Below are positions 8,976-58,290 of a stretch of DNA of 64,000 nucleotides, piece by piece (the first letter of the stretch is position 1; each line of letters begins with the position of its first letter). Below the pieces are notes generated by a model. It saw only the letters and a list, made by a program, of their open reading frames with translations, did no database searches and was not told the origin of the DNA. The translations under genes and the position numbers were made by a program. This DNA is from an uncultured Chloroflexia bacterium. Its GTDB lineage: Bacteria > Chloroflexota > Dehalococcoidia > GIF9 > UBA5629. Location: NCBI GenBank assembly GCA_963705905.1, contig OY970123.1, forward strand, positions 134,919-198,918, written 5' to 3'.

Positions 8976-10904
8976 ATGTTTAAGGTATTCGGCCTTTTAT
9001 TGATATTGGTACTGGCTTTCTGCGTGTCCTTCATACCCCATATTGGCTATGCCTATCCCCTGCATGTGGATGAGTGGATGCATATGACGTATGCGGAAAC
9101 TATTGCGCAGACCGGCTCCATCACCTTTCCCGACCCCTTTACGGGGCTCACCAATATAAACCTGGGGGACAACCTCTGGGTAGGGTTCCACATACTCTGG
9201 GCCATGTTCCAGCAGGTCAGCGGAATTGACTGGATAACCCTCTTCAGGTACTTCCCCTCAATCATCTTCATGATCACAGTTCTGGCTGTATATGTGTTAG
9301 CCTCTCGCCAGGGCTATGGATTGGAGGCTGCCTTCTTTACCTGTCTGATACCGACCACGGGAGGGCTGCTGGGGCCGGCTTTCATGGTGCCTATGGCGCT
9401 TGGCATGCTCTTTATCCCTCTATCTCTGTTTCTCGCCTTCAATATTAAGAGGTGGCCGTCCTATCTTCTGATATTTCTATTTACCTGTTTCCTCCTCATA
9501 TCGCACGCAACAACTGCCGTAGTATTGTGCATAGTTCTCGCTCCCTGCATCCTGCTGAATATCAGGGATAATAAGTGGCACAGCGCCGGCGTGCTGGCCG
9601 CCCTGGCACTGCCCTTCGTCCTGTCCCTGCCCTGGACATTCCAGATAGCTGCGCAGGCTGCGGGCCGGTTACTGGTGCCCCAGTACTTCTCACCCTATAT
9701 TGAGCTGCCTGACCTTGCTTGGAAGTATGGCTTATTGCCTATCGCTTTCAGCTTCATCGGGCTCATTATTTTAATCATAAAGGGCAGCAAAAAAGGCCTG
9801 GCCCTGATATTGGGGCTGGCTTTGCTTTTGGTTGTCATGGTGATCTTTTACAGGTTTCATCACGGCCTATCCACAATATACGAACGTGGCCTTACAGTTA
9901 TGCTTCTGATTTTGAGTATTCTGGCCGGTGCGGGATTGATGTGGTTGAGGGGGCTGACGCTGCCCTCAGATTTTCTGAGCAGGCATGGGTCTTCTCTTTT
10001 CCGAAGCGTAGCTATGGTATTTTGCGTGTTGCTGATAGTCGTGATGTTAGGTGTGGCCATTCCTACCCGTGTCAATGCGTCGTTCTATCACATGATTGAT
10101 GACGAAGATTACCGGGCATTCACTTGGATTAAAGATAATATAGGTCAAGATTATAGAACGGCCACATTGGACCCGTGGAAAGCCACGGCATTTTCCGCAT
10201 TAACCGGCAAAAATGCCGTGCATAGGATATGGATTTATCAGGAACCAGCTGATGATCTAATTTATAAATTCCTGGAACATGGCTGCGGGAGCTCTACCTT
10301 TCTGACCGTTAACAAGGTTTCTTTTATTTATAATCTTGCACCTTGCGTTAACCCTGATCTCGCAATGGTTAGATCCGATATTTATATTAGCAACCCAAAT
10401 ATTTCCAACTCGTTTGCCAAGGATACAACTCTGTTTAAAAATCCCGGCTTTGAGCAGGTCACCGATAACCCACCTGGTTACTGGTATACTTCGTCAAGAA
10501 ACTGCGTTCCTGCCTTTTTATATCCCGAACCCGGCAGAAATAATGGGTGGAGTGTCGGTATTGAGGTACCAAAAGCGCCATCGACAGGGACGGCATCGGA
10601 CGCAATTTGGCTTCAGAACGTACCCGTGCAGCAAGGTAGGTCTTATACTATAGGAGGATGGGTAAAAACGTATAACGTAGAAGGACAGAATGGGGTCATG
10701 ATCATGCCCGGATGGCAGGGTCCGGGCTATCAATGGATTAGTGCCACGGAATTTATGCCGTATCTTAAAGGGACAAATGATTGGTCGTACTATCAGGGTA
10801 TTGTCACAGCTCCGCCTGGCGCGACGATTTGCAGCATTTATTGCTTATTGAGTAATTGTTCGGGGCAAGCCTGGTTTGATGACCTTATTTTTGATTCTAA
10901 ATAA
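8976..10904 (+). CDS. Polytopic membrane glycosyltransferase (GT-C-like, OTase/PMT/ArnT-type) fused to a C-terminal carbohydrate-binding beta-sandwich domain
   Basis: About 12 predicted TM helices. An acidic first-loop motif (HVDEWMH) resembles GT-C catalytic loops. The C-terminal ~150 aa (MPGWQGPGYQWISATEFMPYLKGTNDWSYYQG...AWFDDLIF) is shared with the protein at 11348..13057. Confidence 0.6.
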   Translation: MFKVFGLLLILVLAFCVSFIPHIGYAYPLHVDEWMHMTYAETIAQTGSITFPDPFTGLTNINLGDNLWVGFHILWAMFQQVSGIDWITLFRYFPSIIFMITVLAVYVLASRQGYGLEAAFFTCLIPTTGGLLGPAFMVPMALGMLFIPLSLFLAFNIKRWPSYLLIFLFTCFLLISHATTAVVLCIVLAPCILLNIRDNKWHSAGVLAALALPFVLSLPWTFQIAAQAAGRLLVPQYFSPYIELPDLAWKYGLLPIAFSFIGLIILIIKGSKKGLALILGLALLLVVMVIFYRFHHGLSTIYERGLTVMLLILSILAGAGLMWLRGLTLPSDFLSRHGSSLFRSVAMVFCVLLIVVMLGVAIPTRVNASFYHMIDDEDYRAFTWIKDNIGQDYRTATLDPWKATAFSALTGKNAVHRIWIYQEPADDLIYKFLEHGCGSSTFLTVNKVSFIYNLAPCVNPDLAMVRSDIYISNPNISNSFAKDTTLFKNPGFEQVTDNPPGYWYTSSRNCVPAFLYPEPGRNNGWSVGIEVPKAPSTGTASDAIWLQNVPVQQGRSYTIGGWVKTYNVEGQNGVMIMPGWQGPGYQWISATEFMPYLKGTNDWSYYQGIVTAPPGATICSIYCLLSNCSGQAWFDDLIFDSK

Positions 10905-11347: not shown

Positions 11348-13057
11348 TTATTTCTCTCCTGATGCAAGTATGACATTGCTGGCTGTAGTATTAGACATTG
11401 CAGTCCGCTGATCGCCGATATATCCGGCGACTGCCACAAATTGTTTTTTAGGCGTACCGTCGGCATTAAAGAAGGACCATTGGTCATATTTCCCGCAATA
11501 TACTTCAAATAATGTCACTATACTGGCGCCATGCTTGAAAGCGGCATCTATGTAATCTGGTGTGAAATTCGAATTGTACATAGACGAATCATTGCCTATT
11601 TCCAGCGCCCACCAGCCGGTTGACCGGTAACCGTTCTGTCCTAACCAGGATGTTAGAACATCCAAATTCTTGTTCATCTGTTCAACTGATGGTGCATAAC
11701 AATCAAAGACAGGATTGTCCGTCCTATCAAGACACACCTTTTTCAGCGGTATTTGGTAATCTAATCCACCTAGAGGGGCACCCAGCTTGTGTACTATGGG
11801 GATATTACTTTTAGTGCGGAGCACTCCAATGAGAAAATCCATGTAATTGGCGGCTGCCTCTATAGTATATGTTTGAGGTTTTGCATCGGGAGAATCCGGA
11901 TCTACGACTTTACCCTGTAGCGGAGTGTCAAGTTCATTCTCTGCTACAACAGAAACAACGTTTGAATATTTATTAACGACCGATATCCATCTCTCTGCCC
12001 ATGCCCCCATCGTATCGGCAACCGGATATTGCGCTTCACCAAAACCTATGTCTTCGAACCATGCAGTTCCCGTACAGCTATCGAGAAAACAACATATTGT
12101 GCATCTGGTCGATCCTGCGGGTGCGACAACAGTTCCTTGGTAGTATGTCCAGCCATTTGTCCCCGTAACATACTTCATAACCTGAGAGGACCCTATCCAT
12201 GTATCACCAGGACCCTTCCACCACGGTACGATCATAGCACCACCGTTGCCAACTATGCTCTCCGTTTTAATCCATCCTGATATAAGGTACGATTTACCTG
12301 CTTCAACAGGTATATCTTTAAGCCATCTGGACCACACGTCCGGTTTGTTTTCAGACATTCTTATGCCTACGCAAGGGTTTCCATCTCTTCCCATCTCGCC
12401 AGGGAGGAAAGTAGGGGTGCAATTCTTTGAATCTGGCCACCATAGACTCCATTGGAAATCAGGATTTACCAAATTTTCAAAACCGGGCTGCCATTTCCCA
12501 TAGATGCCGGGTATCACCAGCATCTTGTGCTGGTATAGTAAATCCAGCAAGGTCTTGTAGGCAGTTGCTTCTTCCGGGCAACTGGATGGGAAATTCGTTT
12601 CTTTGGATATTGAAGGCAGCCACCAGTAAATATATTGCATCTGAAGGTGTACAACCCGTATTCCGGCTGCTTGTGCATACGTCAATATCTTGTCATAAAC
12701 CGCTAAATTTTCAGGGAGCCAAAACTGACCGCCTTCACCAAATGGCATATCGTAAAGGCTCAGATCTATGCCCACGAGTTGTTTTTGTTCTCCATCTAAA
12801 ATGAAATACCCATCCCTGCCTATTTGAACGTGTTCAGTACTGCCGTCGGCCCAGGTGATAGCTTTATCCAGCAGATAAGCGTTCTGCGAAGCAGGTTCTA
12901 TGGGTTGCGCCGGAGCAGCTTTAACAATGGAAGGGGCAGAGAATTGACATAATATGATTAGGCTAAAAACAAACGAAAGATACAGCCTTAAGTTCGCCTT
13001 TATGAGCCGGCCCAAATCTAACCGGCCCGGACGTCTACCTGCTAAGGGATGGTTCAC
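11348..13057 (-). CDS. Secreted GH-like protein with inserted CBM-like beta-sandwich domain
   Basis: Hydrophobic signal-like N-terminus. Core is homologous to 1839..3047. Internal domain (IVPWWKGPGDTWIGSSQVMKYVTGTNGWTYYQG...AWFEDIGF) is homologous to the C-terminus of 8976..10904. Apparent GTG start at 13057, preceded by a GGGAGA RBS. Confidence 0.6.
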   Translation of the reverse strand: MNHPLAGRRPGRLDLGRLIKANLRLYLSFVFSLIILCQFSAPSIVKAAPAQPIEPASQNAYLLDKAITWADGSTEHVQIGRDGYFILDGEQKQLVGIDLSLYDMPFGEGGQFWLPENLAVYDKILTYAQAAGIRVVHLQMQYIYWWLPSISKETNFPSSCPEEATAYKTLLDLLYQHKMLVIPGIYGKWQPGFENLVNPDFQWSLWWPDSKNCTPTFLPGEMGRDGNPCVGIRMSENKPDVWSRWLKDIPVEAGKSYLISGWIKTESIVGNGGAMIVPWWKGPGDTWIGSSQVMKYVTGTNGWTYYQGTVVAPAGSTRCTICCFLDSCTGTAWFEDIGFGEAQYPVADTMGAWAERWISVVNKYSNVVSVVAENELDTPLQGKVVDPDSPDAKPQTYTIEAAANYMDFLIGVLRTKSNIPIVHKLGAPLGGLDYQIPLKKVCLDRTDNPVFDCYAPSVEQMNKNLDVLTSWLGQNGYRSTGWWALEIGNDSSMYNSNFTPDYIDAAFKHGASIVTLFEVYCGKYDQWSFFNADGTPKKQFVAVAGYIGDQRTAMSNTTASNVILASGEK

Positions 13058-43942: not shown

Positions 43943-44123
43943 TTTAATTTCGCATCTCCTGTGATTTCATAAGTAAAAGATAATGCTTGTTTAAACGCTA
44001 TTGTCGTCTCGTGATCCTGAAGATTTGGAGTATAATCTTATCTTTCGACCATTGTCAAAGTTATTACAGGATATCGATAGGGCAACCTAGTGATCTGATA
44101 TGGATCAATGCGTTTCTTTACTT

Positions 44124-45089
44124 TTATAGCGGCCTGAAATACCCCACGCCCACTCCAACAGCCAACAAGAGACCAAGGCAACCGTGAAGTTGTGACGACA
44201 AATATAAAGCCATCACAAAATCCTTTCGTTCTCGTCCCTGCCATACCATCCTTAATGCCTTTACCGCCAGGGGTAGTGCTAGAAATGGCAAAAGCACTAC
44301 AAATCCAAACTCTTTGATAGTGGCAAGTGCCAGCACTATAGCAAACTCCGCTGTTATTAAAAGAGTCCATTCCCACCGTCCAAAACCACGCCCCCACAAG
44401 GTAATAAAAGTCGTCTTACCGGTAGCCTTATCTTCTTCCAGGTCGCGAAGGTCGTTAGCCACTAAAATAGAGGTAACGCTGCACGCAATGGGAATTGAAA
44501 GCCAAAAAGCGTTGACGGTGAGGACGTGACTCTGAACGTAACATGAACCAAGGACCATAACCAGACCCATAAAAATAAAAACTAAGGGATGCCCTAACCC
44601 GATATTCCCCAGAGGCCTGGGTCCGGCTGCATAGCAATAGGCTGCCGCAGCACTAAGGAAGCATACTATTAAAAGAGGCCACCCCGTTATGAGGACCAGA
44701 TATAAACCGATAAGACCGGCTATGCCAAAACAGAATATGGCGCCACTTTTGACTTCTTTGCTGGATAAAGCTCCCGAAGCAATAACCTTGTAGGGTGCTA
44801 GCACCTTATTTTCCGAGTTTGTAGTGGTATGGTCGTAATACTCGTCCACAAGATTGGAAGCCACCTGTACCAGTATGCTCGCAACAAGCACGAGTATAAA
44901 AATTTCTAAATTGGCTTGTTTTTCACGGAATGCCAGGGCAGAGCCTACCAATATAGGAGCCACAGCAGCCGTAAGCGAAAATGGGCGTGATGCCCAGTAC
45001 CAGGCCCGCACTTGCTGCCATCCTTTTGAAGTCGTGCCCTGGAGCGGCTTATCGGAAGGCTTTGCTGTTCTGTTCATAGAGGTTTTCAT
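44124..45089 (-). CDS. menA: UbiA-family prenyltransferase (MenA-like 1,4-dihydroxy-2-naphthoate prenyltransferase)
   Basis: Asp-rich motifs NLVDEYYD and NDLRDLEEDKATGK, ~9 TM helices. Confidence 0.75.
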   Translation of the reverse strand: MKTSMNRTAKPSDKPLQGTTSKGWQQVRAWYWASRPFSLTAAVAPILVGSALAFREKQANLEIFILVLVASILVQVASNLVDEYYDHTTTNSENKVLAPYKVIASGALSSKEVKSGAIFCFGIAGLIGLYLVLITGWPLLIVCFLSAAAAYCYAAGPRPLGNIGLGHPLVFIFMGLVMVLGSCYVQSHVLTVNAFWLSIPIACSVTSILVANDLRDLEEDKATGKTTFITLWGRGFGRWEWTLLITAEFAIVLALATIKEFGFVVLLPFLALPLAVKALRMVWQGRERKDFVMALYLSSQLHGCLGLLLAVGVGVGYFRPL

Positions 45090-45238
45090 GCAGCGCTCTC
45101 CCCAGCTCTAATGTCATTGTTGTCTTTTGCTTCGTTTTCTGTCTGATTTAACCCAAATACACCCGGCAGTAATCGATTCAATATTCAACTAATTTAGGCT
45201 GGGGATTGAATTTCCAGGTAAAGATTTGATGTTCCGTA

Positions 45239-45706
45239 CTATTCGTCTTCCCACTGGTATTTGTCTTTCCTGTCTTTTAACTTACTTGATCCGCAGGCAA
45301 AGCAAATACCATTATGGCAGCAGAGTGCCTGGCCGCATTCAGGACATTTCCATTTATTTTCTTCCGCCCTAATGAATTGTTTAACGCCATGTACCTTAAT
45401 GAACAGGAGATTTTCAACCATACTCATTCTGAAAAAGGTTTTATAGCGCTGGTCGAGGTGGTGAAGATTATTGCAGGGGAAATCCTGACATTCATAGCAG
45501 TATTTTATTTGTCCATTCAAGAGCGGCGGACATTTCTTTTTGATGAGGGCACACTTTCTATCTCTTGGCCTGCAGCCGGCGCAGTAGGACATTCGAATTC
45601 CCTTGCTTCTCACATCATGTTTAAAGGCGAGATACCTGCTGCATATTGCGCAGTTCATGCCGCAGGGGGCAATCAGCTCTTCATTCATTATAGCTTGAAC
45701 TATCAT
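45239..45706 (-). CDS. Cys-rich zinc-finger protein (DUF3795-like)
   Basis: CGMNCAICSRY, CAGC, CYECQDFPC, CPECG motifs, 155 aa. Confidence 0.6.
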   Translation of the reverse strand: MIVQAIMNEELIAPCGMNCAICSRYLAFKHDVRSKGIRMSYCAGCRPRDRKCALIKKKCPPLLNGQIKYCYECQDFPCNNLHHLDQRYKTFFRMSMVENLLFIKVHGVKQFIRAEENKWKCPECGQALCCHNGICFACGSSKLKDRKDKYQWEDE

Positions 45707-45966
45707 AGCAAATGGTAAAGTAGATAATCCACTTATACGGAAAGGATGCCGAGATTGTTATGGCCGTAACTAGCCTACTCAGATAATTAACGATCCACTA
45801 AGGCTTCATTGGCTACGCTCGATCGTGGCCCTTTCCATATAGCTGTGATGGCATTTTCAATACATTTCAATACATGGAGTGCGGTGGCCGGTTTCGCTTG
45901 ACATCTCCAATGATTGATGTTATGATTTGACTATCTTTTAGATACTTACTTTTGGAAAGAGAATAG

Positions 45967-50767: not shown

Positions 50768-51391
50768 ATGATCGCAGCAAAACCAGCGTCCATCATCCTG
50801 TGCGGCGGCACGACGCGCCGTTTCGGCGGGAATAAAGCCAATGCCTCCGTTGGAGGCCGCCAGGTAATTGAGCGTATCTTCAAGGTCCTCGAGCCGCTTT
50901 CCAGCCGGATTATCGCGGTCACTTCGGGTGAAAACACTGACGTCCGCATACCGGATGGGGCTGTGGTTGTCGTTGACATCTATCCCGGAAGGGGACCCCT
51001 GGGAGGCATCTACACCGGACTTCTCCATGCACATTCCGACTTCGCCCTGGTGGTCGGGTGCGACATGCCTTTTCTTAATGCCGGGCTGATCAGCTTTATG
51101 TTCAGCCTGGCTGATGGGTTCGACGCGGTTGCTCCCCGGATTGGCGGCAGGTATATAGAACCGCTCCATACTGTCTATACACGGGCATGCCTGGCCAGGA
51201 TAGAAAGTCAACTTAAAAGCGGGCAGCAGTCTATATGGCCGGTGCTTAGGGAGCTTAATACCCGGTATATGGAGAAAAAGGAGTACCTCCCGCTGGATCC
51301 CCGCCTTCTGTCCTTCTTCAATATCAACGTCCCGGAAGACCTCGAGCGCGCTAACCGGATAGCTGCCCAACTGGATACCGATATTGTCTAA
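50768..51391 (+). CDS. mobA: Molybdenum cofactor guanylyltransferase
   Basis: ILCGGTTRRFGG...K motif. GCDMPFL motif, 207 aa. Confidence 0.75.
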   Translation: MIAAKPASIILCGGTTRRFGGNKANASVGGRQVIERIFKVLEPLSSRIIAVTSGENTDVRIPDGAVVVVDIYPGRGPLGGIYTGLLHAHSDFALVVGCDMPFLNAGLISFMFSLADGFDAVAPRIGGRYIEPLHTVYTRACLARIESQLKSGQQSIWPVLRELNTRYMEKKEYLPLDPRLLSFFNINVPEDLERANRIAAQLDTDIV

Positions 51392-51469
51392 TGGGTACGT
51401 CCTGGCAGCAAACTCCATTGTAAGAATATACCGGATTAATTGGAGCTAAGATAATTATCTGGAGGGATG

Positions 51470-51515
51470 GTGGGCCATTCTGGATTCGAACCAGAGACCC
51501 CAGTCTTATCAGGAC
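51470..51515. repeat. attL: duplicate of the tRNA-Ile 3' half
   Basis: gtgggccattctggattcgaaccagagaccccagtcttatcaggac is an exact 46-bp copy of 55274-55319. Confidence 0.7.
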
Positions 51516-51886
51516 GATTCCCCTGTCGATTTGATTTCATCTCTTCTGGACCAGCTCGTAGGACTGGGTGAGATAGCGCGCCAACTTAAGCTTGCGTTCG
51601 GCTCCAACGGGCACCCAGCGGCGGAAGTCCGCAACATTATGGAAGCAATAGCCAGAGACCGAGGATAGTCTCTGCCTTTGTTGGCTGTCGGAAGTTCGAA
51701 TCCATACGGTTGGGCCAGTGGTAATTTTTCAACACGAAAGAGTTGAGACATTTCTGGAAATTAGCCTCTCATAGTCACCCATCAGCTATCAGGGGAGTAC
51801 GTAGAAGGGAGCTTTGCAAAGAGCAGAGGCAGGTACTACCTTTGACTGTGGCTGTGATCTAATATAGGCTAACAAGATTCCATGTA

Positions 51887-52510
51887 CTAGAGCTTGTCAG
51901 CAGTGGTATCGTTTATCCAACATGGCAATCGGATAGGGAATCTTACTTCTCGAATCCTGATGTTACCCATTGCCCACCTATGCCCGGCTCTAGGTTTTAC
52001 ACAGGTCACGCAAATAAAGGATACCTTGCACGGTTTGTCGAATTTAATAGTTATGCCACGGCCAGCATATTCCTCAATAGTATTAAACTCACAAACCGGA
52101 CCATGTTCACTATCGATCGTAACTTTCCATTCTTTGGGATAATCAAGGGTGTGGCCTGTGCCTTGCAGGAACGTTATTTCTTGAAATACTCTATCCCTAC
52201 CATATTCTCTGCGCTTGCGCATATCTAAACAAAAATAATCGTTCTCCTTCTGTTCATCGGGACTTACCCAGAATAGAGTTTCCTTGCCGCGTCTTGTTTC
52301 TTCAAGAAAACTAGCTGTCAGTTCCCACTCGGAACAACTTGGCCATAAACGGTCTTGCAGGAACCAAAAAACTGTCAACAGGGTAGCGACTACCCCTACT
52401 AACACTACAGCCCCCACTTTGCAGACCTCCCATACAAGGGAACCAGCAAGGCCAAGAAATGCCCCCCAAAATAGCAAAGCCATCTGAGAAGTAACCCATC
52501 TACTGCGCAT
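51887..52510 (-). CDS. Hypothetical membrane-anchored protein (element cargo)
   Basis: 207-aa ORF with two N-terminal hydrophobic helices. No known motif. Confidence 0.4.
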   Translation of the reverse strand: MRSRWVTSQMALLFWGAFLGLAGSLVWEVCKVGAVVLVGVVATLLTVFWFLQDRLWPSCSEWELTASFLEETRRGKETLFWVSPDEQKENDYFCLDMRKRREYGRDRVFQEITFLQGTGHTLDYPKEWKVTIDSEHGPVCEFNTIEEYAGRGITIKFDKPCKVSFICVTCVKPRAGHRWAMGNIRIREVRFPIRLPCWINDTTADKL

Positions 52511-52815
52511 ACTTCTAGCTCCCTTAGCTTTTGGGAGGATTGTAAGTTATCATACACCACAAGGCTGGCTCATGACAATCACTAAGTCCAAGCGCCGCTG
52601 TTTGGGAACCTGTAACTTTGGCGATTCCAGCTTCCGCCATCCTGACCGTGGCCCTAATTCCCCGATTCATTAGGTATTGAATATCCTCGCCAGATTCAGG
52701 TGCCCTATGACGCGCAATTTCTTCAAGTATAAGGTTTTCTTGAGCAATATATGTATGTCATTAACACAGAAAGGAGAATTTCATAAAGGAGAAATGTTAT
52801 GATGTGTGAACGAAA

Positions 52816-53370
52816 ATGGATCCATGTGTCTCAATACTCAGTTCGTTGCGTGTGATTTTTCAGCCCGTGCTATCAGTTATCAAGTATAAACGGAGTAAAC
52901 CAATAATAACTTTTGGAACTCCGTACTCTGAAGATGATTATATGGGTAGAACTTGGTATATTCCTATTTCTAATGCCAGGACTGATAGGTGGTGGAAGGC
53001 GGCTTTCTGCCCAAACAAGGACGTTCCGAAATGTCATATACATGGTGATTTTACTCTTTGCGGCAAGTTGCTAAATACCTATGATTGGAAAGGGGACATA
53101 GCACCGATTAGTCTTCCGGCAAATTCAGAACCATATTTGCTGGAATGTATAAATAAAAGAGAAGGATATGAAAAATGTGGTATTGTGCCGGTTCCAATGA
53201 GTGATAATGAGCGTTTACCACTGTCAAGCATGCCTATTATCGTTATTTTCTCTGTTATAGAAGGTGGTATTATACTGGGTACTCACAAATACTACATCAA
53301 GAATATAGGTGTACATTTAGATGATTTGATAGTTTACGGCGAGGATCAAACTCCTGTGCTAGTGACATAG
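52816..53370 (+). CDS. Hypothetical protein (element cargo)
   Basis: 184-aa ORF in the AT-rich interior of the element. No known motif. Confidence 0.4.
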   Translation: MDPCVSILSSLRVIFQPVLSVIKYKRSKPIITFGTPYSEDDYMGRTWYIPISNARTDRWWKAAFCPNKDVPKCHIHGDFTLCGKLLNTYDWKGDIAPISLPANSEPYLLECINKREGYEKCGIVPVPMSDNERLPLSSMPIIVIFSVIEGGIILGTHKYYIKNIGVHLDDLIVYGEDQTPVLVT

Positions 53371-53520
53371 AAACATTCGGCAAAAACCGAGAGCGTGTGT
53401 TATGTGTCTCTTTTTCTCCAGGAAGCACTTGCAGAATGACCATCCGATCTAGACGACAGATTCACGTCAGCTTTGTCCAGCTTAATGCCCTCCGGAATCA
53501 GGTTGTCCACCAATACACGA

Positions 53521-53650
53521 CCTGTCAAGAAATGACTGGCACCACCCGTTCAACACGCGTTCAACATCCGTTCAGTGCCTGTCAAGAAATGACTGGCAAC
53601 ATACGTTCAACGCCTGTCAAGACTGACTGTCAACAACCGTTCAACAACTA
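53521..53650. repeat. Iteron-like array: 3x 21-bp CCTGTCAAGAAATGACTGGCA-type repeats interleaved with 5x CGTTCAAC
   Basis: Exact 21-mer at 53521 and 53578, a variant at 53613. CGTTCAAC(A) occurs five times. Confidence 0.65.
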
Positions 53651-53737
53651 GCACAGTGGGCTTGGCACGGCGGTTAATCCCCTTCTCAAGATTGTCCCTT
53701 GAACAATTGTAAGGATTTGTGTTAATCTCTTATAAGC

Positions 53738-54100
53738 ATGGCAGAGAAGTACAAGTCCATAGGGCTAAAAGAGACAGAATACGAGAAGTTGGCTGATGCT
53801 AAGCGGAGCTTCGAGCAACGGCTAGGGAGACCATTGGCGTGGCCACTATTCCTTCAAATGCTGGCAAGCATTCGTATCTTAGAACGAGAGGAACACACGA
53901 TGCACCTGGAAGAGGATGAGCAGCCAATGACTGAAGCGGAAATGGCAGAAGCAGGTGTGAAGAGAGAACTGGGGATACCGATAATGCTACCGGAAGAACA
54001 AATTGAGGATATCGCCAATAGAGTGGCAAATAAGATATTGGAGAAGATAGGAAAACAAAATAAGGCAGCTCTCCCACTGGCAAGGCGCTGCCGGGCCTAG
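53738..54100 (+). CDS. Hypothetical small protein upstream of integrase (possible excisionase/regulator)
   Basis: 120-aa ORF, charged and helical, ending 19 bp before int. Function not recognisable. Confidence 0.4.
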   Translation: MAEKYKSIGLKETEYEKLADAKRSFEQRLGRPLAWPLFLQMLASIRILEREEHTMHLEEDEQPMTEAEMAEAGVKRELGIPIMLPEEQIEDIANRVANKILEKIGKQNKAALPLARRCRA

Positions 54101-54119
54101 TGACCATAAGGAGGCTCTT

Positions 54120-55337
54120 ATGACCACCAAGAGGAAACTAGCACGACAGGTACTACCGAATCAAATACTTCACTTCCCGCCGGACAGTCACCGTCCAGTA
54201 ACCGAGTTTCAGTATCCCAACTATGGGATTCCAAACAGGCCGCTTGTCGCCATTCAAGATGTCCGGGCGGCTTTAGCGGCGGACGATCCCCAGGTCGCTC
54301 TAAATAAACTTGGCATTGTGTCTGCTGATTCTGGGGCCACGCTCAATGAATACCTGAATCACTGGACTGTCACTTCTTTCCACTACCGTTCCCTCATTGA
54401 CCAATATATCCGGCCGGACCTTGGCCACTACCGTCTCAAGCAGCTTTCGAAGGACGCAATTACGGCATGGGTGAATGGCCTGAAGTCCGTGAAAAAGCCC
54501 ACTGAGGGCTTGGCCGTTGGTACGAAAAGGCGCGTACTCCGGTGCCTGCACAAGGTGTTGGCAGACGCGGTCGAGGCTCACCGGATTGCCATGAACCCAG
54601 CTGACGGTGTCAAGGTGTTATCTGATGGCGATGACGAGGGCGACGTCAATCCATTTACAGAAGAGGAATTGGCTACCCTTCTGGAGGCGAATACTGCCTA
54701 TCGTGACTACTACGCTGTTCTTGCCTGGACCGGGCTTCGCAGGGGTGAGTTGATCGGCCTTAGACGAAAGGATTTCCGACGTGATAGGGAGACAGGCAGT
54801 TACTTCCTGATAGTCGAACGGAGTTACGACGCTCGGACTCACAAGATGCGCGTATGCAAGAACCGCGAGAAGCGGCGCGTAGACCTCTGGCCAGACACAG
54901 CCAAGATAATCTCCGCCCGCCTGCGAGAGTCAGGCCAGCCGGATGATATCATCTTCGCTGGGAAGGCTGGGCGGCCGGTCAATCCAACGACTCTGACACA
55001 TGCCATTCGAGACACACTTCCAGCGTTGGGATTGGCACATCATCGTCTGCACGACTTGCGACACACACATGCCACTATGCTGTTGGCTAGTGGGTGGGGT
55101 GTAGTCGACGTTGCAAACAGACTAGGCCACAAAGACCCATCCGTAACGCTCCGTGTCTACGCCCACTGCATTCCAGGACACCAGGCGGGCCTGATTGCTG
55201 CCAAACCGAACCTTGCAAAAGCACAGTCTAACGGCACAGTCTTCGAACCTAAATCCGAGTTGTCTAAGATCAAGTGGGCCATTCTGGATTCGAACCAGAG
55301 ACCCCAGTCTTATCAGGACTGTGCTCTAACCAACTGA
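54120..55337 (+). CDS. int: Tyrosine-type site-specific integrase
   Basis: RBS AAGGAGG. C-terminal catalytic box HDLRHTHATMLLASG...LGHKDPSVTLRVYAH (R..HxxR..Y). The 3' end runs into the antisense tRNA-Ile. Confidence 0.85.
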   Translation: MTTKRKLARQVLPNQILHFPPDSHRPVTEFQYPNYGIPNRPLVAIQDVRAALAADDPQVALNKLGIVSADSGATLNEYLNHWTVTSFHYRSLIDQYIRPDLGHYRLKQLSKDAITAWVNGLKSVKKPTEGLAVGTKRRVLRCLHKVLADAVEAHRIAMNPADGVKVLSDGDDEGDVNPFTEEELATLLEANTAYRDYYAVLAWTGLRRGELIGLRRKDFRRDRETGSYFLIVERSYDARTHKMRVCKNREKRRVDLWPDTAKIISARLRESGQPDDIIFAGKAGRPVNPTTLTHAIRDTLPALGLAHHRLHDLRHTHATMLLASGWGVVDVANRLGHKDPSVTLRVYAHCIPGHQAGLIAAKPNLAKAQSNGTVFEPKSELSKIKWAILDSNQRPQSYQDCALTN

Positions 55338-55348
55338 GCTAATGGCCC
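55275..55348 (-). tRNA. tRNA-Ile (anticodon GAT)
   Basis: Reverse complement GGGCCATTAGCTCAGTTGGTTAGAGCACAGTCCTGATAAGACTGGGGTCTCTGGTTCGAATCCAGAATGGCCCA folds as a cloverleaf with anticodon loop CTGATAA. Confidence 0.85.
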
Positions 55349-55450
55349 TAGAAACGCAGAGTAAAGTATATATTTTGCGCTAATTCAGTGTCAAGGACTC
55401 TGCACTCGTCGATCAGGTATTAACAACGACCGGTTTTCAAGTGGAATAGA

Positions 55451-56515
55451 TTACTTTATCTTATATACCCACTTGAATTTATCGGGCTTCTCACCATACT
55501 GGATGCCCGTGATCGTATTATACAGCTTTAGTGCCAGCTTGCCGGTCTTGCCCCCGTTTATGGTGATCGTTTTGGTCTTATGCTTGATTGCACCAACCGG
55601 AGATATTACCGCGGCAGTCCCGGTGCCGAAGGCCTCCTTCAGCCTTCCGCTGTCGGCCGCTTTCATCAGCTCGTCCATGCTGATCCTGCGCTCGTTGACC
55701 TCCATTCCCCAGTCCCTGGCAATCTGAATGACCGAATCGCGAGTGACGCCCGCCAATATGGTTCCGCTCAGGTGCGGAGTGACCAACACATCATCGATCA
55801 GGAAAAACACGTTCATCGTGCCGACTTCCTCGATATAGTTGCGATGGACTCCGTCCAGCCAGAGTACTTGTGTGAACCCTTTCTTCTGAGCTTCATCAGC
55901 CGCGAAAAGGCTGGCCGCATAGTTGCCCGCCGTTTTAACCGCGCCGCAGCCGCCTTCCACCGACCTGGCATGCTCGACGGCGGTCACCAGCTTAACCGGG
56001 TTAAACCCTTCCTTATAATAAGCGCCTACGGGCGAAAGTATAATCATGAACTGATAGGTATGCGCCACATGGACGCCCAGTGTGCTGTCCATGGCAAAAG
56101 CAAAGGGGCGGATATAAAGGGAATAGCCCTTTTGTTTGGGTATCCACTCCCTGTCGATCCTTAGCAGATGCACCAGCCCTTCTAAGAAAACCTTTTTGTC
56201 AACAGGTGGTATGCAAAGCCGGTGAGCGGATAGATTAAAGCGGTCGATATGCCTTTCAGGCCTGAATACATTGATCGAGCCATCTTTGGCATAAAATGCC
56301 TTGAGGCCTTCGAAGATAGACTGGCCGTAATGCAGCGTCGAGAGTGAGGGGAATATCCTCATGGGTCCGAAAGGCACGATCTTGGGTGCACCCCAGCGGC
56401 CCTTGCTGTACGCCATTTTTAGCATGTGGTCGGTGAAGATATCTCCAAAGCCCAGTCCGGCGAAATCGACCTTGCTGATCTTGCTGCGTTTGATTTTTCT
56501 AACTTCAATAGCCAT
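55451..56515 (-). CDS. ilvE: Branched-chain amino acid aminotransferase (class IV PLP)
   Basis: Start at the internal Met (MAIEVRKIKRS...LGFGDIFTDHM). The ORF's upstream extension overlaps the tRNA-Leu. Confidence 0.8.
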   Translation of the reverse strand: MAIEVRKIKRSKISKVDFAGLGFGDIFTDHMLKMAYSKGRWGAPKIVPFGPMRIFPSLSTLHYGQSIFEGLKAFYAKDGSINVFRPERHIDRFNLSAHRLCIPPVDKKVFLEGLVHLLRIDREWIPKQKGYSLYIRPFAFAMDSTLGVHVAHTYQFMIILSPVGAYYKEGFNPVKLVTAVEHARSVEGGCGAVKTAGNYAASLFAADEAQKKGFTQVLWLDGVHRNYIEEVGTMNVFFLIDDVLVTPHLSGTILAGVTRDSVIQIARDWGMEVNERRISMDELMKAADSGRLKEAFGTGTAAVISPVGAIKHKTKTITINGGKTGKLALKLYNTITGIQYGEKPDKFKWVYKIK

Positions 56516-56551
56516 CTCATCACCTGTAATAATATTTGCTCCGGATTCCCC

Positions 56552-56633
56552 TGGGGAAGAGGGGACTCGAACCCCTACGCCTTGCGGCACATGATCCTAA
56601 GTCATGCTCGTCTGCCAGTTCCGACACTCCCCC
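56552..56633 (-). tRNA. tRNA-Leu (anticodon TAG), long variable arm
   Basis: Reverse complement GGGGGAGTGTCGGAACTGGCAGACGAGCATGACTTAGGATCATGTGCCGCAAGGCGTAGGGGTTCGAGTCCCCTCTTCCCCA. Anticodon loop CTTAGGA. Confidence 0.75.
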
Positions 56634-57530
56634 ACGAAGCTGTTTCTAATATAACTCATTTGCACAAAAAAGTTAATCGACCAGCTGAAAAGTTAACTAA
56701 ACAGCTTCTTGACGAGTTCATATAGTCAAGAAGGCAGGGGTTATCCAGACGTACTATATTATTCTATCAAACGTGTTTAAGCAAATATAACGGCATGGAT
56801 TTGACGTCACAGGGAGTTAACCAGTTTCTTACATCTTTAACCTGCAGAAATAGTAAGTTTGCCTACTATAGAGCTATCAGAGCGTTTTGAAATACATTAA
56901 AATTGTTCAGGGCATTCTAACGGAGCCCACTCACAAATATTTGACGAGTAAAAAGGTTCATCTGAAGAGGTCCCTTTCTTTTTAGCTTCGCCAGATTCAA
57001 GATTAGATTTTGAGACAAACTGAATCTCTTGTTTCATAGGATAATTTGAACATGGCTTTATATTATCGTAGAGCCATAGCCAGTAACAAATATTCTTTTT
57101 ATAACACATTAAGTATCACTCTTACTTTTGTGACCATTAAAGGGCTCACGGCAAGAACTGAAAGTAAAAGTATGAGAGAAACTGTCTATTTCCCGTGATT
57201 TAATGTCTAGACCTCACTACTTTGAACGTAACAGTAACCATCATATTAGAACTGGATCGGTTTGCTGTGACATTTATATCAGCCTCCCACCATTGAGCGC
57301 ATGTATTATACACCTATGCATAACAGATGGGAATAGGGAAAGTACGAAAAAGAATCGAAATAAAATTGTGAAAATAAAAGTAGACGAGGAAGCTGCTTCC
57401 TCGCCTACTTAAATCATTCAAGTTCAGTAAAATATATATGGCTTTCGATACCGGATACCAATCATTTAGCCTTATACTTCGTATTGATGAGATAGTGCTT
57501 CAAGCGATTGAAAAGATCGCTTCCCGGCAT

Positions 57531-58214: not shown

Positions 58215-58290
<76 letters not shown>

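Follow-up and report, generated by a model that had tools for sequence, protein, structure and literature searches.

A 3.8-kb integrative element in a tRNA-Ile gene of a Dehalococcoidia bacterium, with a conserved recombination backbone, variable cargo and an integrase reading frame that stays open across attP

Several described systems resemble the locus reported here, a 3.8-kb element in the tRNA-Ile(GAT) gene of a Dehalococcoidia bacterium, which lies within a 64-kb stretch of contig OY970123.1 (GCA_963705905.1); the whole stretch is called the window below, and positions are those of the window. Among islands in tRNA genes collected by Islander, candidates <2 kb were rejected and sizes peak at 13.6 and 39.9 kb; the authors of that survey also state that the integrases of Mx8 and SSV extend across attP (PMC4383910). 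In Myxococcus phage Mx8 (intP/attP of Tojo 1996 and Magrini 1999, summarised in PMC6070905 and PMC4383910), attP is located within int, and integration makes a new 3' end that changes integrase activity without abolishing it (PMC6070905). The SSV-type "suicidal" integrases of archaeal viruses and plasmids also have attP in int, but there the gene is split and the enzyme is lost (PMC7253208, PMC8371274). At the small end, PICMI satellites have three core proteins for excision and replication and integrate next to fis (PMC10803314). An earlier note on the window, made from the letters of the DNA, had proposed a mini integrative element in tRNA-Ile, possibly satellite-like or decaying. In our judgement the locus as a whole is likely a recently mobile, minimal, site-specific integrative element, which is the best explanation we have for it. 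Going by its sequence, it would be a tRNA island that is modular, helper-dependent, and unusually small, with int lying across attP as in Mx8 and with an uncharacterised small accessory protein.

The borders were defined by a repeat search, which found an exact 46-nt direct repeat with copies 3804 nt apart. An exact duplicate of this length within 64 kb cannot be due to chance.
51470-51515, no strand: att repeat, distal copy of the exact 46-nt repeat, the displaced 3' fragment of the host tRNA-Ile
55274-55319, no strand: att repeat, proximal copy of the exact 46-nt repeat, within the intact tRNA-Ile
55274-55348, minus strand: intact tRNA-Ile(GAT), the integration target (attB) (ARAGORN; Rfam, 70.6 bits)
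These borders are exact and agree with the ~3.9-kb element and 46-bp att duplication of the earlier note, whose description of the repeat as the 3' half of the tRNA and of an AT-rich interior also held. The repeat runs from tRNA position 29, in the anticodon stem, to the discriminator plus one C, and GC content is 0.40–0.44 inside the element vs 0.50–0.59 in the flanks. The inserted unit measures 3,804 bp, or 3,850 bp with both att copies. As in Islander tRNA islands, a tyrosine integrase lies beside an intact tRNA gene, a displaced 3' fragment of that gene marks the far end, and the crossover falls in the segment from the anticodon to the 3' end; unlike the bulk of those islands, the element sits at the bottom of the size range. 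The distal tRNA fragment is still followed by the host-encoded CCA (51467-51470 side), and the tRNA-Ile gene of the empty site likewise has a genome-encoded CCA, while the restored tRNA-Ile beside int is followed by C-TTG (55271-55274). Integration therefore turns a CCA-encoding tRNA gene into a CCA-less one. Elsewhere in the window, CCA is encoded by tRNA-Lys and not by tRNA-Leu. A search of Rfam over 51000-56800 at E ≤ 1 returned two tRNAs and no other RNA family.

An exact-sequence look-up of a MobA-like protein encoded in the flank led to alleles of the site with and without the element. The empty alleles were in L003 (GCA_049510995.1), L004 (JGI 3300038428), and L005 (Logan SRR13021940), each of which has the left flank, a single 46-bp core, and the right flank in a precise join. 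Flanks on the empty-site contigs were 99.4% identical to the window over 5.7 kb and 100% identical over 3.0 kb. The unoccupied tRNA-Ile site that the earlier note had suggested looking for is thus present in three near relatives; the observations it held capable of overturning its reading, a lack of empty-site alleles together with a pseudogene integrase, are the reverse of what we found, since empty sites exist and int is intact. The occupied allele with the exact integrase was present on four contigs from ENA and NCBI assemblies, one of them 2.47 Mb, and a further ENA sample (L063) contained a copy with one mismatch. ERZ25039519 and ERZ25039466 are among the occupied samples. Because sister strains hold the precise empty site, the element was recently mobile, and it is almost certainly a genuine mobile element with the borders as mapped. 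The attB junction reads ...TCTGGAGGGATG + core + TGTGCTCTAACC..., and the virtual attP junction reads ...GAGTTGTCTAAGATCAA + 46-bp core + GATTCCCCTGTCG....

Comparison with a second occupied site divided the element into two parts. L064, a 710-kb contig from another metagenome, has identical 46-bp repeats around a 6,172-bp element in the same tRNA. Its host DNA is only 84% identical to the window downstream, with ilvE at 87.3%, and we therefore consider it a different species. In spite of this, int was 98.0% identical between the two, ORF120 (a small gene next to int) 96.4%, the core and tail stretch (51468-51682) 98.6%, the leader 87%, and the repeat array 85.8%. Counted in codons, 16/406 differed in int vs 124/355 in the host ilvE. 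The remainder was unrelated to L064, which holds a 4.2-kb cargo of six other orphan open reading frames (ORFs) in its place.
51683-53516, no strand: variable AT-rich cargo, GC 0.43, unrelated sequence in L064
The boundary between backbone and cargo is at ~51682, and backbone GC is 0.53. Since the backbone is conserved far above the host genes, it moved between species much later than the hosts diverged, and the alignments indicate that cargo was exchanged while the backbone was retained. We conclude with high confidence that the element is made up of a ~2-kb conserved recombination backbone and an AT-rich cargo of orphan genes that can be swapped. In the circle, the backbone is ordered as repeat array, promoter region, ORF120, int, attP core, 50-codon tail, and hairpin. 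The earlier reading lacked this modularity, the int frame across attP (tail 51516-51668), and the primase-helicase-bearing relatives described below.

The integrase gene and the sequence that continues its frame lie at opposite ends of the integrated element.
54120-55337, plus strand: tyrosine integrase, integrated-state form, 405 aa (PF00589, 5.6e-21; phrog_1, 9.2e-49)
51516-51668, plus strand: tail of 50 codons and a stop, which continues the int frame past the att core in the attP form (virtual junction)
51653-51674, plus strand: terminator-like hairpin straddling the tail stop codon, at the end of the backbone
Residues R207, H311, R314, and Y347 were invariant in an alignment of the close relatives of the integrase, and all of the catalytic residues are encoded upstream of the att core. 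The gene is intact and does read into the tRNA, as had been noted: its 3' end overlaps tRNA-Ile by 64 nt on the opposite strand, comprising the last 21 codons. Joining 55319 to 51516 in a virtual circle leaves the int frame open for 50 codons more and gives a protein of 450 aa. In the integrated state the tail is severed from int, and in silico the 405-aa Int has the 50-aa tail swapped for five tRNA-encoded residues, CALTN. Upstream of tRNA-Ile there is a strong promoter-like site (55394-55365, minus strand; TTGACA-18-TATACT, 11/12 matches). When the site is occupied, transcription of tRNA-Ile meets int head-on, which could interfere with int expression.

The attP core is located inside the int ORF and downstream of the catalytic residues, in real DNA in the relative L009 and at the virtual junction in the window, the relative L012, and likewise L064. 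This is the Mx8 type of arrangement, in which a tyrosine integrase ORF contains attP and acquires a new 3' end on integration without being inactivated. Mx8, according to its primary papers, reportedly also targets the 3' part of a tRNA gene. It differs in being a ~50-kb temperate phage of a myxobacterium, whereas the 3.8-kb element here is from Chloroflexota and has no phage genes; the integrases are not close either, and no phage or Mx8 match was found among the close Int homologs. SSV-type integrases share the tRNA targets and the partitioning of the gene by an attP inside the int ORF. They differ from the window element in that its split falls after the catalytic tyrosine, Y347, so that a complete catalytic protein stays, and in that its host is bacterial. 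The fold differs as well: an AlphaFold2 model of P0002, the Int of L009, was an ordinary tyrosine recombinase with Tn1549 and lambda integrases as its best matches, and the window Int is assigned to that fold through it. The core-binding and catalytic domains of the model were confident, the stretch encoded by the att core was disordered, and the tail formed three helices with pLDDT of ~70.

L009 and L012 are larger than the window element in gene content. L009, whose integrase is 54% identical, is a real contig in the attP form, with a tRNA-Ile half-site inside a 512-aa int ORF and the tRNA absent. The int stop codon is also where a DnaG-type zinc-ribbon primase gene starts, and a DUF3987 helicase-like gene comes next. 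L012 (Int 43% identical) is a 7.8-kb element bounded by a 45-bp repeat and integrated in tRNA-Arg. Across its virtual junction int encodes 458 aa, and the end of this frame is overlapped by a primase gene of the Prim-Pol/zinc-ribbon type. Across these relatives with replication modules (Zn_ribbon_DnaG, Prim-Pol, DUF3987) the gene starts overlap the end of the full-length int ORF, and in both L009 and L012 it takes attP to make int, primase, and helicase one unbroken unit, so that excision would be needed to couple the replication genes to int. In Tn916-type control, transcripts cross the joint of the circular form, and the L009/L012 unit is alike in this respect; the window element is not, as its tail is followed by the hairpin and opposite-strand cargo. 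Primase-helicase genes of this kind resemble satellite replication modules.

An int that reads into an opposite-strand tRNA gene was common to 5/5 close relatives with enough sequence and to eight more distant ones. Scans of genome and metagenome contigs with the Int alignment found only relatives ≤36% identical over most of the protein, the metagenome scan being swamped by a generic HDLRH motif, and viral contigs scanned with Int, the attP-side junction, and the 21-bp box of the repeat array gave no match. We looked for distal att fragments of the eight more distant relatives in the available DNA, and only L022, a Terriglobia metagenome-assembled genome, showed one. There, at 9135-10427, only 1.2 kb separates the intact tRNA from a 47-nt tRNA-Met fragment, this interval contains no more of an integrase than its C-terminal third, and the locus looks like a 1.2-kb remnant.

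On the int side, the conserved backbone begins with repeats.
53521-53646, plus strand: repeat array, three composite units of ~34 bp each, with which the conserved backbone begins on the int side
53651-53737, plus strand: conserved leader and candidate ORF120-int promoter, identified by eye, 87% identical to L064
53738-54100, plus strand: ORF120, encoding a small protein of helices, a putative regulator or accessory factor of recombination, 96.4% identical in L064
The array of 21-bp and 8-bp repeats had already been placed just 5' of a small ORF, which is ORF120. It contains two exact copies and a third variant copy of the 21-bp box CCTGTCAAGAAATGACTGGCA, with none expected in 100 shuffles, and 4/5 of the window matches to the 8-bp box CGTTCAAC plus one variant, some of these boxes being 11 bp apart. 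In L064 the 8-mers are intact, spacer bases vary, and there is one 11-bp unit fewer. An 84-aa ORF over the array (53397-53651) was rejected as its first 120 nt are not conserved in L064. The window and L064 do not differ in the last ~45 nt 5' of the ORF120 ATG, and a candidate promoter could be picked out by eye as TTGAAC, 17–18 nt, and TTAATC/TAATCT, ~9 nt from the ATG. An mRNA for ORF120 and int begun from this site would be leaderless or nearly so.

The ORF120 family had 11 representatives among 1.84 billion proteins. AlphaFold2 placed bridge residues at 5 and 11, helices at 12-29 and 35-53, and a long C-terminal helix, with pLDDT of 90–95 over residues 11-40. The modeled N-terminus is a putative strand-helix-helix with a topology like that of ribbon-helix-helix (RHH) proteins. 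RHH regulators such as MetJ, omega, and ParR bind tandem short repeats. ORF120 resembles them as a small predicted strand-helix-helix protein beside short direct repeats 5' of its own gene, and differs in having no sequence or structure match to RHH families. Its homolog P0135 (44% identical, on L146) is encoded just upstream of a 524-aa large serine recombinase, which ties the family to integration modules and not to one recombinase chemistry. This pair (L146, 766-2834) is near a phage portal gene, with inverted and direct repeats upstream at 526-607. Two other homologs were on contigs too short to inform. The relative L010 also has a three-copy array of its own, which lies where a small divergent ORF begins; this ORF has no family match and by eye looks strand-helix-helix-like.

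We prefer to read the array as an operator, or binding platform, through which ORF120, a predicted DNA-binding protein, would control ORF120-int, and hold this reading at a little under even. The preference comes from the conservation of the array (intact 8-mers and an indel of a whole 11-bp unit), its position as the first conserved sequence 5' of ORF120, the strand-helix-helix of ORF120, and the repeats in L010 and L146. The earlier note had offered two other functions, an origin of replication and arm-type integrase sites, both of which now appear less likely. As an origin, the array would be of the iteron type and fired in trans by the Rep or primase-helicase of a related element or phage, making the excised mini-element a replicating satellite. 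Its layout of ~21-bp direct repeats with short repeats in 11-bp phase is iteron-like, the closest relatives encode primase-helicase modules, and the array is kept in both mini-elements, neither of which has recognisable replication genes. L009 also has TGTCAT/ATGACA repeat clusters directly after its helicase gene, which have the CTGTCA motif in common with the 21-bp box of the window. We nevertheless regard an origin as unlikely. No Rep or primase was recognisable in the window or L064, no helper was found, and L012, which does have primase and helicase genes, has no comparable array. There is also no conserved AT-rich unwinding stretch adjoining the array, since sequence 5' of 53517 is not common to L064, and a place directly 5' of ORF120-int suits an operator equally well or better.

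The open frame across attP allows two readings as well. We consider it quite probable that the tail is a real coding part of int. If the frame were incidental, the tail would be a separate small gene (TTG start at 51531) or non-coding DNA of an attP arm, and the strong DNA conservation beside the core is also what a protein-binding attP arm would show. The relatives do not agree in the frame read through the tRNA-derived core, and the window tail is only modestly like the other tails: 35/5000 shuffles reached the observed score against L009 and 29/5000 against L012, or p of ~0.006 each. Despite the changes of frame through the core, however, the tail remains in frame. Three independent elements in two different tRNAs are open for 50–70 codons past the core, where by our own calculation ~65 random codons would lack a stop with a chance of ~0.04 per element. 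A helix motif (LxxLxxxGxIxxxL) is common to the three tails; counted from the core, L009 aligns in register with both L012 and the window, and for L009 vs L012 0/5000 shuffles reached the observed score. The fused ORF is real DNA in L009, where its stop and the start of the primase gene overlap. Finally, the sole change between the window and L064 in the 153-nt tail is synonymous, and similarity ceases ~14 nt past the stop codon. On this evidence we think an incidental frame improbable, a shade more so than the origin. A minus-strand 80-aa ORF over the same stretch (51509-51751) was not accepted as a gene, since similarity to L064 breaks off within it.

Of the two functions suggested earlier for the array, arm-type Int sites of a lambda-like attP intasome fared worse. 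Tn1549 and lambda integrases, the closest folds to this Int, use arm sites, and tandem 8-bp boxes at 11-bp spacing do resemble tandem arm sites. Canonical arm sites are within a few hundred bp of the core. Between the array and the core there are instead 1.63 kb by way of ORF120 and int and ~2 kb around the other side of the circle, and this spacing is not conserved, as the cargo between tail and array ranges over 1.8–4.2 kb. Pfam found no arm-binding domain in the window Int, while PF14657 was present in many more distant homologs. Arm sites in the array are very unlikely as a result. Nearer the core, a tandem GCACAGTCT-AACG-GCACAGTCT is located at 55221-55242 in the 3' coding region of int, 32–53 bp from the att core, and an accessory protein of recombination could bind this pair. 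No repeated motif other than GCACAGTCT x2 was found in a motif search around the virtual attP, and a 10-nt inverted match of a T-loop segment at ~51696 was at chance level.

A decaying, immobile remnant of a larger primase-helicase element with an inert integrase is scarcely credible, small as the element is, with orphan cargo, without the replication module of its relatives, and with L022 as a distant relative that does resemble a remnant: the att repeats are identical, int is intact with all catalytic residues, presence or absence varies among near-identical strains with a precise empty site, and a backbone 96–98.6% identical across species in int, ORF120, and tail, against host genes at only 84–87%, was kept while cargo was exchanged, which largely refutes the suggestion of decay.

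The cargo of the window element consists of two orphan genes.
51887-52510, minus strand: cargo ORF207, no family match, one outside homolog
52816-53370, plus strand: cargo ORF184, orphan, candidate gene, no family match
ORF207, preceded by a sigma-70-like promoter (52578-52549), probably has a hydrophobic, membrane-spanning N-terminus and a ~140-aa C-terminal domain, as read by eye from its sequence. Its sole outside homolog, P0133, is 51% identical and on a 1.8-kb contig. In that groundwater metagenome contig (L145, 212-1722), the next gene after the ORF207 homolog encodes a 285-aa protein that weakly matches an SprT-like zinc ribbon, and the pair may be a two-gene cassette. A search of 5.8 billion proteins gave ORF184 no homolog beyond its own cluster. 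The three ORFs described earlier as orphans remained so: ORF207, ORF184, and ORF120 had no significant match in Pfam, PHROGs, PADLOC, or NCBIfam. Family scans of all ORFs of the window element and the L064 cargo identified the integrase only, and no replication, relaxase, packaging, or known defence gene; one L064 cargo ORF had weak 2TM/DUF6338 matches below cut-offs. Variable cargo could serve accessory or defence roles.

With no recognisable replication, transfer, or packaging gene, the element would have to use a helper or passive DNA transfer to spread from cell to cell. A relaxase domain, which, with or in place of an oriT, marks integrative mobilizable elements, was absent from the window element in the family scans, as was any match to Rep, primase, or AlpA. 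Phage satellites are distinguished by a primase or Rep of their own and a helper-responsive regulator, and a primase-helicase was present only in L009 and L012. The description satellite-like therefore stands in the loose sense of a helper-dependent hitcher and not in the strict one, as there is no satellite hallmark gene and no helper was found. The element is like PICMI satellites and "hitcher" elements (PMC11389934) in being very small and integrase-bearing with no transfer machinery of its own. It is unlike PICMI in having no detectable replication gene or AlpA, another site, no identified helper, and cargo without a PADLOC match.

Taken together, we propose that the attP of the element recombines with the 3' half of tRNA-Ile(GAT). 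From the free circle, Int would be made as a 450-aa protein that ends in a helical tail, and integration would cut int at the core to leave a 405-aa Int ending in five tRNA-encoded residues. By analogy with Mx8, this C-terminal swap probably alters Int activity or directionality and would stabilise the integrated state. ORF120 bound to the array would regulate the ORF120-int promoter, and hence excision and integration. More tentatively, and as something we think possible but less than even the operator reading, the window element and a few relatives may be an undescribed bacterial, Chloroflexota-associated family built around an attP-spanning operon, in which excision restores the full-length Int and, in larger members, replication genes. 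If true, excision in the larger members would re-couple the primase-helicase genes to the int promoter, integration would shut off the free-form integrase isoform and replication alike, and the mini-elements (window and L064) would be minimal derivatives with the switch only, shuttling arbitrary cargo between species.

Several observations weigh against this account. The attP junction of this element was found in no contig or read, a scan of viral contigs for the junction was null, and excision of the window element would be seen solely through the presence/absence polymorphism in the population. An effect of tail loss on Int function is suggested purely by analogy with Mx8. In addition to the modest likeness of the window tail to those of L009 and L012, close Int relatives number six only, making the family-level argument for the tail one from few sequences. 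ORF120 had no significant Pfam, PDB-sequence, or Foldseek match, nor one to any RHH family, and a consensus promoter scan called no promoter upstream of it. No helper element was identified, with viral contigs giving no match, and a replication or transfer function may yet be hidden in the orphan cargo.

The element offers a clean natural minimum for tRNA targeting, ~2 kb made up of a repeat array, one small protein, an integrase, and attP, and the data show both exchange of cargo and transfer from species to species. Small non-phage elements of Dehalococcoidia now join Mx8 in having this type of arrangement, and in Dehalococcoidia mobile elements matter and genetic tools are scarce. The backbone is a testable integration vector for tRNA-Ile(GAT) sites, and the Int-450/Int-405 pair is a natural test of control over tyrosine recombinases by a C-terminal tail. 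Apart from that, the biology is conventional.

Other differences were found around the locus. In L003 and L004, from position 11693 on, similarity to the window ends within tRNA-Lys(CTT) (window 58215-58290) and another element begins, which encodes an integrase of 286 aa and an AAA_25 ATPase besides small ORFs. The window tRNA-Lys is unoccupied. As occupancy of both tRNA-Ile and tRNA-Lys differs, near-identical strains differ by at least two tRNA-borne elements. At window 44088-45847, which includes a UbiA-family prenyltransferase gene (44124-45089), L003, L004, and L005 have ~330 bp of other sequence, a strain-level indel. Between tRNA-Leu(TAG) and the next gene, window 56700-57500 has a GC of 0.35–0.39 and no ORF >70 aa, and this AT-rich stretch is identical in the empty-site strain.

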